Part shown: one piece after another, positions 33,009-38,622 of the stretch
How positions within the stretch are numbered: position 1 is the stretch's first letter
Layout: each line of letters starts with the position of its first letter
NCBI GenBank assembly: GCA_965223545.1
Contig: OZ245006.1
Span: 1,984,001 to 2,048,000, forward strand
Source: Planctomycetota bacterium
Lineage (GTDB): Bacteria > Planctomycetota > UBA1135 > UBA2386
DNA length: 64,000 bases
Direction of reading: 5' to 3'
Notes under the pieces: model-generated
The model's input: the letters and a program-made list of their open reading frames with translations, nothing else
Database searches by the model: none
Told to the model about the DNA's origin: nothing
Position numbers and translations under genes: made by a program

Positions 33009-33399
33009 GCGGAGCGAGCCGGCGAAGCGCCAACTGATCATTGCTGAATCCCCTGACACCAACGCGTAAACGTTCGGTGAGGATCCGCGTGTAAGCGGTG
33101 GGGCCGGGGGGCCAAAACCGAGCGTGCAGGACTTCCTTGGTCTGCCCCGCTGGAGCGCTCAAGCCTGACCGTGATCCGCAAGGGGTTGCCGATGGAGGAT
33201 GGAGGTACACGAGGAAGTGTCTGCCTTCGTCACCAGATCGCGAAGTGCAAAGGAGCAGCGAAGCGGGCAGCGAGGGAGGGGTCGGTTTGTAGTCACCAGT
33301 CACCAGCTACCTCTACGCAAACAACCGAGGACGACGGGTGTCCGCGCGTCAGACGGGCAACGACTGCTGCGTCCGTTCCAACGCCTGTATTCTGTCCCT

Positions 33400-33570
33400 C
33401 GGGGCCGGCAATTCTGACTCTTCTTCTCGAAGGGTCCTTGCTCTGCTTGAACGCTTGAACGCCTTGACCTTGTGCGGAATAAGCCCATTCTGCTTCCACA
33501 CTCGATTCAATATCGACTGCGTGATCCCTGAATTCTCCGCGAGAGATTGCACTTCTGCATCACACCACTG
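33400..33570 (-). pseudogene. Degenerate IS630-family transposase fragment
   Basis: VQSLAENSGITQSILNRVWKQNGLIPHKVKAFK, then after an 8-nt duplication (GTTCAAGC) QSKDP and FEKK in shifted frames. Resembles the IS630 HTH region RIWxxHGLKPHRVKTFKLSNDPxFEEK. Confidence 0.6.
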
Positions 33571-34442
33571 AACCAATCGTGCAAGGCATCGCATAATGCG
33601 CCATCGACCTTAGCGTCGAACACGGCAAACATCGGCGACGAGTTGACTTCGAGAAACATCAAGTCACCTGTGTCAGCGCAGGTCTTGAAGTCCGCTGCCG
33701 CGAAGTCTAGACCAACGCCGTCGCATAGAGTGAATAACTGCGTCGGCAGCGATGGCGGCAACACGTCCAGCTTCACTGGAACGACCTCGCATGCGCCCGT
33801 TCGCCGGTAGTCGAGTTCGCTCGAATCCATCCGAAATCCGAAGCACCGACTGCCAATCCGGTAGACGCGGTACTCCGGTGCAACCAGCCGTGGCTGCACG
33901 ATCGCTGGCGCAGCAGCAACGCCGCCCCTCTCTTCCGCCGCAGCGATCGCTGCATCCGCGGTCTCGCAGAATCCACCACCGTCAACAGGCTTCACCACGA
34001 GCCCCAACGCACCGGCCACACTCGCGATCCGGTCTACCTCATTCGAGACCAGAGTGAACGGAACACTGAATCCGACCTCGCGAGCAAGCGCCAACATCTG
34101 GGGCTTGTTAGTGACTCGGACTCCCGCGACTCGGTTGGGCATCGCCACATCCGTGTGTGCCATCAGCCATCCCTGGATCGTCGTGTACCAGGCGTGAGCG
34201 CGTCGCGCGACGACGGGCCGCGGATCGTCGAGCTCAGAAAACACGTCGTAGCGGACGAACCCAGCCGACGGCCGAACATGGCGCCCCTCGACAATCAGCC
34301 GATCCTCGACGACGTCCCAGGACAAGCGCGGGGCACGACCCGGACCTACCCAGAGTTCGAGTGTCTCGACGCCGCGCGTTCTGGCGCAAGCGGCAAGCCG
34401 CCTGAGATTCGGGTCGTCAGGGCCACCGGCGATCAGAAACAC
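33507..34442 (-). CDS. ATP-grasp ligase, RimK/MvdD/PsnB-like (putative graspetide synthetase)
   Basis: NKPQML...GFSVPFTLVSN, VVKPVDGG, PAIVQPRL, EYRVY, DYR, GLDFAAADF and FLEVNSSPMF motifs. It starts 3 nt after the tyrosinase stop. Confidence 0.85.
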   Translation of the reverse strand: MFLIAGGPDDPNLRRLAACARTRGVETLELWVGPGRAPRLSWDVVEDRLIVEGRHVRPSAGFVRYDVFSELDDPRPVVARRAHAWYTTIQGWLMAHTDVAMPNRVAGVRVTNKPQMLALAREVGFSVPFTLVSNEVDRIASVAGALGLVVKPVDGGGFCETADAAIAAAEERGGVAAAPAIVQPRLVAPEYRVYRIGSRCFGFRMDSSELDYRRTGACEVVPVKLDVLPPSLPTQLFTLCDGVGLDFAAADFKTCADTGDLMFLEVNSSPMFAVFDAKVDGALCDALHDWFSGVMQKCNLSRRIQGSRSRY

Positions 34443-34445
34443 CTA

Positions 34446-35624
34446 TCAGAACCCACCGAAAGGGCTCCGCGGATCGCCTCCGCGGAATGGCTCTGGATCG
34501 TCGATGCGCGGGTCGGTCGGGCCCTCGCCAATGAACCTCGTCGGCGAGCCTTCCTCGCCCAAACGCAGCGTTGTCGGACCGCCTTCCTCCCCGACACGAA
34601 GCGTTGTGAGGTCCTCTCCTTGGGGTAGGGTCGGCACGGCCTCTTCGCCAATCCACTGGGATATCGGCTCCTCCCAGCGGGGAAAGGTTGGACGAGCCGC
34701 GCGCTCGGGGCACGGGCAGCCCTCTTCGTCATCGTAACAGTAACCTACATCCCGGTGATCGAGGACCATTTCAGGTGTAACAACATCCGTGACGGGGTAG
34801 CTCGGCACCAACGCGGCCATACCGGCGGCGGTTGTCTCCGATGCGCTCGCATCCCACGGCCACATAGGGTCAGTCAGACGATGTCCCTGCCCCCCCGTGT
34901 TTAGGGGGTTGTAGTTTGCGGCACCTGGATGATCTCTTTGCCACTTGGCCCAGATCCGATCGACCTGGGCATGGTGCAACCAGAAGATCGGATCGTTGGG
35001 CGAAGTCATCTGGCTCATGTCACGCCCAAGCCGAACGTGAACAATCCCGTGTGGCGGCCATTCGAGTGCGGGCCGGAAAAGGTTGAAAGTTGGCAGCGCC
35101 AAGACAGCCGCAACCGAAGCTGCCGTTGGCCACGGTGCGCCCCGGTTGAGGGCAGTGTTCCGCTGCAACCCGTCGCCGAATCTCTGCAGTTCCGCGCGAA
35201 TCGGAAAGCCCAGCGGATTGAGCGCGTTGGGGTCGCGTGCGAAGTAGCCGGAGTCGACTGTGAACGTCCCGGCCGCGCCGAGCGGGCCGAGCCGATCGTC
35301 GGCGAACAGACCAATCTCGTCGTCGTCGTCGCCTAGGCCCCAATTCCAGTAAGGGAGCGTCACGCGGGCATCGACCGACTGAAGGGCCTGCTCGAACCGC
35401 TTCAAGTACTCGCGGTGCCACGGCAAGAACGCGGGGCCGCCGTGGGCACCGTCCGTGGTCTGCGCGCCATTTAGCTGAGTAACTCCAACGTGAAGGGCTA
35501 CGAACATGTCGTACACACTGATCCCCGATCCTGGCGGAAACGTGTGCTTGAGTGTGACAACCGCCGTGAGGAACCTGTGCCACTCCTCAGCGGAGAGACT
35601 GCTGGCGTTCTTGCGCACGTTCAT
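34446..35624 (-). CDS. Tyrosinase (MelC2-like) with a C-terminal graspetide-like repeat tail
   Basis: VRKNASSLS start, CuA ligands in ALH and AHGGPAFLPWHREYL, LPYWNW, CuB ligands in PHGIVH and NDPIFWLHHAQVDRIW. Strong SD GAGGAGG. The tail has seven (T/S)xxxx(E/D) units. Confidence 0.92.
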   Translation of the reverse strand: MNVRKNASSLSAEEWHRFLTAVVTLKHTFPPGSGISVYDMFVALHVGVTQLNGAQTTDGAHGGPAFLPWHREYLKRFEQALQSVDARVTLPYWNWGLGDDDDEIGLFADDRLGPLGAAGTFTVDSGYFARDPNALNPLGFPIRAELQRFGDGLQRNTALNRGAPWPTAASVAAVLALPTFNLFRPALEWPPHGIVHVRLGRDMSQMTSPNDPIFWLHHAQVDRIWAKWQRDHPGAANYNPLNTGGQGHRLTDPMWPWDASASETTAAGMAALVPSYPVTDVVTPEMVLDHRDVGYCYDDEEGCPCPERAARPTFPRWEEPISQWIGEEAVPTLPQGEDLTTLRVGEEGGPTTLRLGEEGSPTRFIGEGPTDPRIDDPEPFRGGDPRSPFGGF

Positions 35625-35665
35625 CTCGGTTTCCTCCTCTCTTGATCGCTGCGTGTGATCGCCTA

Positions 35666-35962
35666 TCACGCGCGACCGTCTACGATCGCGCGCGCGAGTT
35701 CATTGGCCGAACCGTACCTCTCGTATGGCTTTTCGGTCGAATTATACTGGCCAGTGTCGGCATCGCGCGCGAACAAGATGGGCTCGTCATCTATCTTGAC
35801 TTGTTCGTCGGCCCCATCTAGCTGCACGACAATACGACAATCTTTGTAGACTGTGTCCGATACGATCGACGGCTTCCCGGCCTTTTTGCTCTTCCCGGGC
35901 TTCTTGCTCTTCCCGGGCTTCTTGCTCTTCCCGGGCTTCTTGCTCTTCGATTTGTTGCTCAT
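35666..35962 (-). CDS. Tyrosinase cofactor/caddie (MelC1-like) with Lys-rich N-terminal repeat
   Basis: YKDCRI...VKIDDEPI...DADTGQYNS...PYERYGSANELARAIVD resembles the MelC1 pattern YxGRRI...IDGxEL...NADGSWIS...HY...AARAAVD. It lies immediately upstream of the tyrosinase. Confidence 0.7.
   Translation of the reverse strand: MSNKSKSKKPGKSKKPGKSKKPGKSKKAGKPSIVSDTVYKDCRIVVQLDGADEQVKIDDEPILFARDADTGQYNSTEKPYERYGSANELARAIVDGRA
35886..35948. repeat. 18-bp tandem repeat x3.5 (encodes KSKKPG)
   Basis: TTGCTCTTCCCGGGCTTC three times exactly, plus a partial copy. Confidence 0.9.
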
Positions 35963-36423
35963 CACCCTTCTCTACTGTTGTCCCATCGAAAGATGAGCGC
36001 CATACCACTGCCGGACGGTAACTTTAAGCGTAACCAAAGTGGCGCCCCCGCGTCACGGAATATTTCCAACAGCTACCGCGAGAGCCAATCGAGGTAGCTT
36101 GGGCTTCTGTCTAGGTCCAGTGGCGCGTCGTCACCACCTCCACAACGCCTTACGTTCGTGCAAGTTCGTCGCAATACTGTTTGGCTGACGTGAGCTGGTT
36201 CTTCTGCGCACCGGAGTGCCTGCGTATTCGAGCTGGCGATTACCGTGCCGCCACGGCGTTTCGGGTGCCAAGGCCAAGCGTTCGGCCTCTTTCTCCTTGA
36301 GCGCTTAGTAGAGGGTCTTCTCCCCCGTCGGCATATTCAGCACACAAGACAACAGTGCAGGTCGGCATGCCGGCCTGGGTAACGGTTCACAGCGATGTCG
36401 GATGGGCCCGGCCGCGCCGCGCA

Positions 36424-38622
36424 TCAGCGAATCTCGAGCATCGCCACCGGCGAGGTCTCCTCGACCTCGGGAGAAGTCGTCTCGAGCGTGCACATCGCCG
36501 CGTACAGCTGCAGCCCGGACAAGCCGGGGTCATTGGGAATCGGCAACACGGTCTGCGCCTCGCCGTTGCCGTCCAACACCCCTTGGAACCCGGGCAGCTG
36601 GCCGGCCAACACCGCCGCGGTCAGCACATCGACCCCCATCGGCAGCACCCGCCCCGGCGCGACGCGCACGGTCTCCGGATAGCCGACCGTCGACAGCAAC
36701 GCGAAGAACGGCGCCCGCGGGTGGTAGCGGTCGGAGAACTCGACGCCGACGGTCGCACCGAGGCTGGCCGGCCCGCGAAACGACACGAGGTCGGTGGCGG
36801 TGTCCATCGCCGTCGTCCAAGCGATCGCCAACGGCTCTTGGTCGCCATCGAAGCGGTGCACGTGCAGCACGACGGTGTAGGTGCCACTCACCGGCGGACG
36901 AAACATCGCGATCTCGAACGGGTTGAACGGCGATGCCGACGCCGCCACCACGTTGCCGGCCGGATCCTCGATCGTCATGTCGAGGTCCATCTCGAGCACG
37001 TCGGTGCTGTACGAAGAGTCCGCCTGCGAGAACCACAACGCGACGACGCGGGCGGTGTCGTGGCGATCGAGGTAGAGGGTGTGCCGATACACACCGGCAG
37101 TAAACGAGCTCGGCGTCAGCGTCGCGGAGTGGTACTGGCCGTCCTCGACCGCGCTCTGCGCCGCCGCCGCGTCGACGCCGCCGGCGCCGTCGAAGTCGCT
37201 GAGTGGCTTGCCGCCGTGGATGTTGTTCCACGCGCCCGCCATCAACATCGCCTTGACCACTTCCGGCTTGGCGAGCAGGGCGTTGTCCGTCGACGCCAAC
37301 AAGGCGGCGGTGCCACACACCACCGGCGAAGCGAACGACGTGCCCGAGCCGGCGTTGCTGGTGATCCACGGGCTGCGGTTGGTCGTGGTGCTGATGCCGG
37401 TGCCATGCGCAGCGAGCTCGGGCTTCTCGTGATTGCTGGGCTGCGGGTTGCGCGTGCTCGAGCCGGTGTTCATCCGGTCGTCGTCCCAGTCGTGCGTGTT
37501 GCGCTCGTCGGCGTTGCCGGTGGCCGTTGTGTTGAAGCCGTTGCCCGGCGTCGTGGTCGGCTGGTTGTTGCCCTGGTTGCCGCAGGACTTGAACATCATC
37601 ACGCCGAAGTTGCGGATGATGTAGTCGAAATAGCGGTCGAGGAACACGATGCTGCCGCGGTTGCCGTTCCACCACGAGCAGTTGCCGAACGAGATGCCGT
37701 TCTGCATGCCAAACGCCCAAGCAGCCGGCGTCGCGACGTCGTCGTAGCCGGGCTGCACGAACAGCCGGTCGATGCCCGGCGCGGCGCCGGTCTGCTGCGG
37801 GTGCTTGGAGCAGACGATGCCGCTGACAGCCGCCGCGTGCGAGTCGTCGGCGGCGTTGTTGCCACGCGTCACCGGCGGCAGGTAGGGATTGGCGGTGGTG
37901 ACGTTGCCGACGTCGTTGACCAAGACGCGCACTCCCTGGCCGCGAATTCCCTTGAGATGTACGAAGTCGGTGCGCGCCGTCGGCGAGGCCCATTCGTTGA
38001 TCGGCGCCGGACACACCTCGGGCGCGGCGGTGGGAAAGCAGTAGTAGGCCTGGTCGACCTCGGCGCGCGCCGCCCACCCCGGCACCTGGTCGGACGCCAT
38101 CGTCGCGCAGACGAACGGCACGAAAGGGTCCACGTAGCGCACGGCAAAACCCGCCCGACCGAGAGCGGCAGCAAACGGACCCGTGACCGTCGCCGCCAGC
38201 CGCTGGGCCTCGTCCAACGCCGTGCGCCGCGCGTCTGCCGCCGCTTGGCCCGCGTCGATGGCCCGATCCAGCGTAGCCCGCAAGTCCGGGTGCCCCGCGG
38301 GCCGGTGCAGCCAGAACACGACGTCGAGGGCGGCGGCGACCGGCAGCTGCGATCGCAGCGCGTGCCACATCTTGCCGTTCTGCACATCGCGGGTGCTCGC
38401 TTCCCGCCGCAACAGCGCATCGGCGTCGATCGGCGCGCCGGTCCGCGCGTCGGTCGTCCGCCGCCGAATCCTCCGGCTGTCGGGATCGAGCCACCGCTGC
38501 TCGCGCACGGTGACACCGAGCGTGGGGAGCACTCGGTGCTCGTCGGCCAACACGCCTGGCGGCTCGCCTTGAACCAGGAGAAGGAGAAGCGAGAGAGCGG
38601 GCACGACGACCTCCTTGGGCAT
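36424..38622 (-). CDS. Secreted S8 (subtilisin-like) serine peptidase
   Basis: Catalytic triad in VNDVG, DSHAAAVSG and GSGTSFASP, oxyanion motif SCGNQG, signal peptide, and a PPC-like plus C-terminal domain. Confidence 0.88.
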   Translation of the reverse strand: MPKEVVVPALSLLLLLVQGEPPGVLADEHRVLPTLGVTVREQRWLDPDSRRIRRRTTDARTGAPIDADALLRREASTRDVQNGKMWHALRSQLPVAAALDVVFWLHRPAGHPDLRATLDRAIDAGQAAADARRTALDEAQRLAATVTGPFAAALGRAGFAVRYVDPFVPFVCATMASDQVPGWAARAEVDQAYYCFPTAAPEVCPAPINEWASPTARTDFVHLKGIRGQGVRVLVNDVGNVTTANPYLPPVTRGNNAADDSHAAAVSGIVCSKHPQQTGAAPGIDRLFVQPGYDDVATPAAWAFGMQNGISFGNCSWWNGNRGSIVFLDRYFDYIIRNFGVMMFKSCGNQGNNQPTTTPGNGFNTTATGNADERNTHDWDDDRMNTGSSTRNPQPSNHEKPELAAHGTGISTTTNRSPWITSNAGSGTSFASPVVCGTAALLASTDNALLAKPEVVKAMLMAGAWNNIHGGKPLSDFDGAGGVDAAAAQSAVEDGQYHSATLTPSSFTAGVYRHTLYLDRHDTARVVALWFSQADSSYSTDVLEMDLDMTIEDPAGNVVAASASPFNPFEIAMFRPPVSGTYTVVLHVHRFDGDQEPLAIAWTTAMDTATDLVSFRGPASLGATVGVEFSDRYHPRAPFFALLSTVGYPETVRVAPGRVLPMGVDVLTAAVLAGQLPGFQGVLDGNGEAQTVLPIPNDPGLSGLQLYAAMCTLETTSPEVEETSPVAMLEIR

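Follow-up and report, generated by a model that had tools for sequence, protein, structure and literature searches.

The 64,000-nucleotide (nt) stretch analysed here, positions 1,984,001 to 2,048,000 of contig OZ245006.1 of a Planctomycetota bacterium (assembly GCA_965223545.1; hereafter the window), encodes a tyrosinase that continues beyond its catalytic domain into a C-terminal tail with graspetide-like cores, and its gene is followed by that of an ATP-grasp ligase of the graspetide-maturase kind. With a small caddie-like protein encoded upstream, these make three closely spaced minus-strand genes by open reading frame (ORF) calls, in the transcription order caddie-like protein, tyrosinase, ligase, and we propose that they form one unit. 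With a probability that we put at roughly 0.6, the ligase would form Thr-Glu esters on the tyrosinase's own tail; we infer the chemistry, the follower role of the tail's end and the biological role from sequence and from analogy with characterised systems. An initial annotation of this DNA had already read the ligase as acting on the tyrosinase tail, and the comparisons below support that reading at the level of sequence.

The tyrosinase and its repeat-bearing tail

By its domain and its six copper-site histidines the window enzyme is a MelC2-like type-3 copper tyrosinase. Pfam PF00264 covers residues 51-245 of the listed ORF (E 3.8e-38), NCBIfam MelC2 matches with E 4.3e-48, under the model cut-off, and the Streptomyces tyrosinase 1wx2_A from the PDB aligns with residues 1-259 (E 8.9e-40). 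All six copper-binding histidines had been said to be kept, and they are located in the sequence as His45, 61, 70, 192, 196 and 218 (392-residue numbering). Their spacings of 16/9 and 4/22 equal those of the Streptomyces enzyme. H192, H196 and H218, together with H217, are invariant in an alignment of five tyrosinase fusions. Since four homologues begin with MxVRK or MxIRK and a GAGGAGG box stands 8 nt upstream of the ATG at 35624, this ATG is most likely the real start, giving a protein of 392 amino acids (aa). It lies about 41 nt past the stop of the small gene, and the ligase GTG lies 3 nt (TAG) past the tyrosinase stop TGA. Both the tight spacing of the three minus-strand genes and the TAG gap agree with the initial annotation, all three ORFs being found in that order and TGA-TAG-GTG being read directly in the sequence.

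The tyrosinase domain ends with GYCYD at residues 294-298. The tail comprises the 94 residues that follow (299-392), is rich in P, E, G and T and lacks Tyr; it contains two canonical TTLRxGEE cores, three degenerate units, the conserved stretch PTDPRIDDPEPF and a terminal SPFGGF. Repeated Thr/Ser-x4-acidic units had been described for it before; the units are real, and full TT..GEE cores are present in only two of them. When the whole 8.1-Mb genome is scanned as 110,375 stop-to-stop segments of 30 aa or more, clustered TxxxGE[ED] motifs, or one such motif together with a PFGxF-like end, occur in the window segment alone, and therefore the motif array is more than chance. The same scan of the whole genome finds no other candidate substrate for the ligase, and no separate small precursor gene occurs near the ligase among ORFs of at least 20 aa between 32.9 and 36.45 kb of the window. 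The accessible part of the plesiocin preprint gives TTxxxxEE as the plesiocin core, each core holding two Thr-Glu esters, one inner and one outer, and names an 'AIGEE region' (10.1101/2021.03.09.434688).

The tail is not confined to the window. Searched on its own, it retrieves P0002 (E 6.8e-9) and P0003 (E 9.6e-7) among others, and the number of cores in homologous tails ranges from 2 to 25. Besides the window protein, tyrosinase fusions with the tail are P0002, P0003, P0089, P0092/L082, L013 and L029, and in five tyrosinase fusions the P, F, G and final F of SPFGGF are invariant. P0089 and P0092 carry the tail among the best 150 representatives of 8,786 matches in a full-library search with the window protein (P0001); the rest of those 150 bear many unrelated C-terminal domains past the YxY motif, or none. 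L013 and L029, from metagenome-assembled genomes of Myxococcota, have 22 and 25 cores. In L082, the full-length form of P0092, the ligase gene (E 1.5e-51) overlaps the 3' end of the fusion and is cut by the end of the contig. The initial annotation had proposed a search for tyrosinases with such tails beside ATP-grasp genes; fusions recur, and the ligase stands directly downstream in all four with known context (window, L013, L029, L082). The tail-bearing tyrosinases fall into two clades that are 31-36% identical to each other (L013 and L029 rows), and in each clade other C-terminal domains also occur: L083 shares 64% identity with the window enzyme, and L146 shares 38-49% with enzymes of the L013 type. 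A conserved CPC follows GYCYD (window 34707-34745, minus strand), with C296, P304 and C305 invariant in five fusions, and is also present in the relatives L083, P0090 and P0091, which have other tails.

Tails of other kinds are likewise followed by graspetide-type ligases among the 79 tyrosinase ORFs checked in metagenome loci. The tyrosinase of L093 (L093:500-2307) ends in a tail with PTLKFxDD six times, that of L133 (L133:676-2584) in TLKxxDD units, and that of L096 (L096:3932-6910) in a K/E-rich repeat; the ligases that follow them match TIGR04187 with E values of 1.9e-20, 7.9e-31 and 4.8e-39, respectively. TLKFRDD occurs in three Group 1 (microviridin-type) precursors in the accessible part of a published RODEO table (PMC13097080). 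Between the tyrosinase and the ligase of L096 lies a 245-aa ORF (L096:5245-5979) with a family match at chance level only, whose product may be a partner protein.

The ligase and the repeat proteins of its family

All NCBIfam matches of the ligase are graspetide maturases (TIGR04187, E 1.3e-20; MvdD, 2.3e-11; MvdC, 2.8e-11). No RimK or GshB model of NCBIfam matches it at E <= 0.1, and Pfam gives no match. Its six PDB matches at E <= 1 are graspetide ligases without exception, the best being 7drm (E 1.7e-14), which the accessible part of the preprint identifies as PsnB of plesiocin (10.1101/2021.03.09.434688). The choice between a graspetide-type and a RimK- or GshB-type enzyme, which the initial annotation had made one of its tests, thus falls to the former. 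With PsnB numbering set at an offset of 20 from the 7drm chain, as derived from seven residues named in the preprint, R192 of the ligase aligns with the core-binding Arg213 of PsnB. This residue, along with K151, E265 and N267, is invariant in 21 ligase homologues. The ligase is full-length, keeps every family-invariant residue and is encoded by a single copy in the genome; its last ~15 residues have no counterpart in homologues. The end of its gene (33507-33560) is overlapped by an 81-aa ORF at 33349-33594 on the minus strand, which has no Pfam match. A remnant of an IS630 transposase was suspected in this ORF and is set aside, Pfam giving no match. Possibly the 3' flank of the ligase is the scar of a rearrangement. 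For the fusion, a structure predicted from a 5-row alignment has a mean pLDDT (predicted local distance difference test) of 32.6, too low for use, and the predicted complex of the ligase with tail residues 336-392 scores 0.01 against a mark of 0.32.

A word-based search yields 82 ligase relatives at 36-50% identity plus one weak match, and the locus counts that follow refer to the best 80 loci of 226 relatives confirmed in a genome scan. In 71 of the 80 loci the ligase is preceded on the same strand by an ORF in which the motif TxxxGE[ED] occurs two or more times, and an upstream repeat protein is found in 77 if one motif or the end motif suffices, with a median gap of 18 nt to the ligase. The co-occurrence of such tails with the ligase, another test named at the outset, is thus seen in these 77 loci as well as in the tyrosinase fusions with known context. 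Upstream repeat proteins have 0-25 cores (median 9), and in 67 of the 80 loci PFGx[F/Y/W] is their exact C-terminal end; the remaining ten candidates include those of L002, L016, L031 and L069, which end in AFGxF or GFGRF. Three loci have no upstream candidate: L062, where the contig end cuts it, L054 and L061. RTX-type and haloperoxidase-like precursors end otherwise, and the ligases that go with them fall into clades of their own with good support. In many precursors the first core is preceded by fewer than 20 residues, and only the cores and the C-terminal end are shared; for this reason PFGxF, on which the initial annotation is silent, is probably a natural C-terminal follower motif. In another graspetide family the tetrapeptide RPFG is the key recognition element and works when the leader is moved to the C-terminus, according to the accessible part of the source (PMC13003496).

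The part ahead of the cores varies widely. Across the 80 loci, L082 and the window it is short in 44 cases, a ~120-aa cyanobacterial domain in 13, a ~150-aa acidobacterial domain in 8, a tyrosinase in 4 (window, L013, L029 and L082), an RTX-repeat region in 2, a haloperoxidase-like part in 2 and something else in 6; the remaining 3 count as none. Pfam finds tyrosinase in L013, L029, P0002 and P0003, HemolysinCabind in L070, PrcB_C in L075 and a weak PAP2 match in L009. The precursors of L009 and L011 (L009:3894-5828 and L011:3527-5848), of ~650-770 aa with a weak PAP2/haloperoxidase-like N-terminal part, have cores of the TTYDFxGEE type and no PFGxF end, and their ligases stand in a separate clade. 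The repeat-tail protein P0004 begins with an apparent twin-arginine signal (TRRAALK followed by a hydrophobic stretch), and for some members of the repeat-tail family export may follow folding.

Independent origins of the tyrosinase-associated ligases were considered and not adopted: a quick tree splits them, yet a tree joining the three is 4.7 log-likelihood units better, and the tree that holds them together has a p value of 0.585 in the approximately unbiased test (p-AU). The three full-length tyrosinase-associated ligases may or may not form one clade; that of L082, with just 160 residues matched, was excluded from the tree.

Table 1. Features of the three-gene cassette, in window coordinates
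Feature	Position	Strand	Basis
Small protein, 99 aa, remote MelC1/caddie homologue	35666..35965	-	ORF call; family profile
Tyrosinase ORF as listed	34446-35669	-	ORF list
Tyrosinase-tail coding sequence, 392 aa (P0001), most likely start	34449..35624; stop 34446-34448	-	Homologue N-termini and GAGGAGG box
Tyrosinase catalytic domain, residues 1-298, last residues GYCYD	34731..35624	-	PF00264, MelC2, 1wx2_A
C-terminal tail, 94 aa, putative graspetide core region	34449..34730	-	Sequence; tail-only search
Degenerate core ISQWIGEE, residues 321-328	34641..34664	-	Sequence
Degenerate core PTLPQGED, residues 331-338	34611..34634	-	Sequence
Canonical core 1, TTLRVGEE, residues 340-347	34584..34607	-	Fits plesiocin core TTxxxxEE
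Canonical core 2, TTLRLGEE, residues 351-358	34551..34574	-	Sequence
Degenerate core PTRFIGEG, residues 361-368	34521..34544	-	Sequence
Terminal SPFGGF, putative C-terminal recognition ('follower') motif	34449..34466	-	Conservation in fusions and upstream repeat proteins
ATP-grasp ligase, 311 aa, graspetide-maturase kind	33507..34442	-	NCBIfam, PDB, homologue alignment

The caddie-like protein and the genome setting

The small protein belongs to a family whose alignment (A3) comprises nine proteins encoded upstream of tyrosinases. Against the PDB, the A3 profile finds NE1242 (2jv8; E 7e-21), a tyrosinase co-factor protein (6j2u_A; 2.1e-5) and chains of the caddie MelC (3.6e-5 to 1.7e-4). The window protein alone reaches NCBIfam MelC1 with E 0.016, and Pfam MelC1 matches three of the nine A3 members (best 1.6e-5). 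BLASTP gives no alignment between the small proteins of the window and of L013, and the kinship is visible by the family profile only. The conserved PY of the family aligns with the HY of the caddie, whose Tyr we take to be Tyr98, the residue inserted into the active site of the tyrosinase; the caddie's His-rich loop has no counterpart in the A3 family, being an insertion relative to the profile. The MelC1-like caddie named in the initial annotation thus holds up as a remote homologue, by profile and by the aligned Tyr. Members of the A3 family are encoded directly upstream of the tyrosinases of L013, L029, L082, L083, L093, L096, L133 and L146, that is, of enzymes with and without graspetide tails, and the family is accordingly linked to the tyrosinase and not to the tail. 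No export signal is seen by eye in the small protein, whose Lys-rich N-terminus lacks a hydrophobic stretch. This N-terminus carries KSKKPG three times and then KSKKAG, encoded by a near-perfect DNA repeat (window 35880-35950, minus strand), and Lys-rich starts also occur in relatives. NE1242, an 'uncharacterized protein' of solved structure, belongs to the same tyrosinase-linked, caddie-like family, as does L146:3753-3965, and a function is thereby suggested for NE1242.

The G+C content is 0.55-0.67 across 33.0-36.6 kb of the window, against a genome average of 0.70. None of the 40 relatives searched, 24 from the same family and 16 from the same order, has a close ligase homologue, and two of them give weak matches (E 8.5e-15 and 3.1e-19). 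The lower G+C and the missing close homologue in these relatives suggest that the cassette was acquired horizontally. No tRNA gene is found in the 30-40 kb segment of the window. An S8 subtilase gene (732 aa, 36424-38622, minus strand) lies 458 nt upstream on the strand of the cassette; its product shows weak matches to mycosin and to the dentilisin subunit PrtP, and the PrcB_C domain found in the precursor L075 is named after a PrtP partner. Near the cassette, the segment 31500-33008 of the plus strand encodes a fusion in which an LpxB (lipid-A-disaccharide synthase) domain is followed by a rhodanese domain at the C-terminus.

Proposed modification, alternatives and known systems

In the course of events that we propose, the small protein would assist the tyrosinase in the manner of a caddie, and the ligase, on the model of PsnB and plesiocin, would take the C-terminal tail of the enzyme as its substrate, docking on it probably via the terminal SPFGGF as a natural follower. 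The ligase would then phosphorylate the Glu side chains of each GEE, and attack by the two Thr hydroxyls would close two Thr-Glu omega-esters in every TTxxxGEE core, one inner and one outer. Four esters are predicted on the two canonical cores and up to three more on the degenerate ones, so that the product would be a tyrosinase bearing a short array of covalently stapled hairpins. Were the tail modified in this way, it might remain attached to the enzyme and there inhibit or resist proteases, a fate that we tentatively put at somewhat under even odds; a role as a lid that keeps the enzyme latent, or as a regulator of its copper site, appears unlikely though conceivable, and the same holds for cleavage that sets the tail free as a plesiocin-like inhibitor.

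Several observations weigh against modification of the tail by the ligase. All NCBIfam scores of the ligase are far under the curated cut-offs, and in the ligase tree it sits on a long branch (0.86). None of the seven residues of the PsnB leader pocket is identical in the ligase (Tyr171, Arg181, Arg192, Ile193, Leu196, Val201 and Phe203 correspond to V, E, E, R, V, A and V), and the binding mode is therefore not transferable from PsnB. Only two of the five units of the tail are canonical, and the tail is among the shortest and most degenerate of its family. One point in favour loses weight: in the metagenome set a graspetide-type ligase is found only beside the tyrosinases with repeat tails (L082, L093, L096 and L133) and beside none of the 75 others, a contrast weakened by short contigs with cut ends and by the use of just two search models. 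The idea of a follower draws on conservation only. No protease or exporter is conserved beside the ligase family, where the largest cluster of non-precursor neighbours covers 7 of the 80 loci.

That the tyrosinase is simply the oversized N-terminal part of a carrier-fused precursor, whose tail, once cyclised, is severed and inhibits serine proteases on its own as plesiocin does, is improbable. The same cores and ligase family do occur with minimal precursors that lack an N-terminal domain, and so the cores must be able to work alone; an S8 peptidase gene is at hand 458 nt upstream on the same strand, and characterised Group 2 products are freed from their leaders, according to the accessible part of the source (PMC11626197). 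The S8 gene, however, is not seen beside L013 or L029, and neither a protease nor a peptidase-transporter is conserved beside the ligase family in the 80 loci. Because the tyrosinase has retained all six histidines and a caddie-like helper, it is not a decayed leader.

In other tyrosinases a C-terminal domain keeps the enzyme latent, and the stapled tail could similarly fold over the type-3 copper site and hold the enzyme inactive until the tail is removed. The tail begins right past the YxY motif (GYCYD), where many C-terminal domains of related tyrosinases start, and tyrosinases have acquired three different graspetide-like tails. The same tail module, however, is found on RTX-repeat, PrcB_C and unknown domains or on no domain at all, and is therefore not specific to tyrosinases; furthermore, the tail lacks Tyr. 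Microviridin A, a graspetide, is reported to inhibit tyrosinase in the accessible part of one source, but the inhibition is weak, with a half-maximal inhibitory concentration (IC50) of 0.33 mM (PMC7823629). We regard a latency lid of this kind as quite improbable.

A tail that is merely a disordered linker or a decaying remnant, with a ligase that is inactive or acts elsewhere, would fit the short and partly degenerate tail, the G+C of the cassette (0.55-0.67 against 0.70) and the non-homologous C-terminal end of the ligase, but is a very distant prospect for a full-length ligase with all family-invariant residues, for cores and an end motif that have been kept in fusions with 56-61% identity to the window protein, and for a genome without other candidate substrates.

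If the ligase does modify the tyrosinase tail, the meaning extends beyond this locus. By the usual view, graspetides are small peptide natural products that have an N-terminal leader; their chemistry would also be a natural protein modification, a C-terminal tag of six residues might suffice to guide it, a property that protein engineering could use, and tyrosinase biology would gain a C-terminal appendage of a new kind. With three genes and two clean cores, the system is a small one. On a wider view, which taken as a whole we hold to be rather unlikely, graspetide ligases have natural protein-sized clients, cores and follower travel with the ligase as a portable module onto full-size enzymes, and tyrosinases in particular have recruited at least three chemically different tails (TTxxxGEE, TLKFxDD and K/E-rich); this would imply a specific functional coupling, with the stapled tail as a regulator or guard that is covalently locked onto the copper enzyme.

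The system combines features of several known ones. With the Streptomyces MelC1/MelC2 pair, which to our knowledge lacks a tail or a ligase, it shares a small helper gene directly upstream of the tyrosinase, profile-level homology and the Tyr aligned with HY; the small protein of the window differs from MelC1 in that no signal peptide is seen and the His-rich loop is a gap in its family. As in the borosins, a class of peptides made on the ribosome and modified afterwards (RiPPs), the putative core is the C-terminal tail of a full-size enzyme. In borosins such as omphalotin/OphMA the fused enzyme reportedly modifies its own C-terminal core, whereas in the window the fused domain is a tyrosinase and the ligase is encoded by a separate gene.

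Like PsnA2/PsnB of plesiocin, in the accessible part of their description, the window system has a TTxxxxEE core with G before EE, cores in tandem and a single ATP-grasp ligase, and PsnB is the closest solved structure, with the equivalent of Arg213 kept in the window ligase. PsnA2, by the same description, is a free peptide with an N-terminal leader (LFIEDL); the window system, in contrast, has no leader, a PFGxF C-terminus and a ligase in which none of the seven pocket residues is identical, and its candidate substrate is the tail of a 392-aa enzyme. The window thus shares with Group 2 a graspetide-type ligase, a repeated TTxxxxEE core, adjacent genes and the Arg213 equivalent, and the Group 2a combination of an LFIEDL-type leader and a matching ligase pocket is absent from the window proteins. 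The RODEO dataset of Carter et al. 2026, in the accessible part of its supplementary information (SI) file 2, assigns to Group 2 precursors with TTLAVGEE repeats and PFGxF ends, of the same repeat family and the same ligase family as the window (PMC13097080). By eye, its 270-aa Pyrinomonadaceae precursor looks identical to the ORF of L022. Six tyrosinase-type strings looked up in that part of the file give no tyrosinase rows, and neither N-terminal domains nor the C-terminal motif are discussed in the accessible part of the article text.

The literature searched yields no description of a tyrosinase-graspetide fusion, and the tables of Lee et al. 2020 and Ramesh et al. 2021 may list such fusions; the word tyrosinase is absent from Makarova et al. 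2022. The initial annotation's statement that no such fusion is described therefore stands for the fusion itself but not for the repeats, which were already assigned to Group 2 in the 2026 dataset (PMC13097080). As far as these sources were accessible, the repeat family is already catalogued, including 270-aa precursors with N-terminal domains, and it is the tyrosinase fusion and the C-terminal motif for which no description was found. A counterpart with a graspetide ligase acting on protein-sized substrates is provided by the ThfB constructs engineered for protein cyclisation and for leader-to-follower swaps, which, in the accessible parts of their reports, share with the window C-terminal guidance and a PFG-containing motif (PMC12291112, PMC13003496). 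Those constructs are laboratory-made and belong to another graspetide group, whereas the arrangement in the window is natural.

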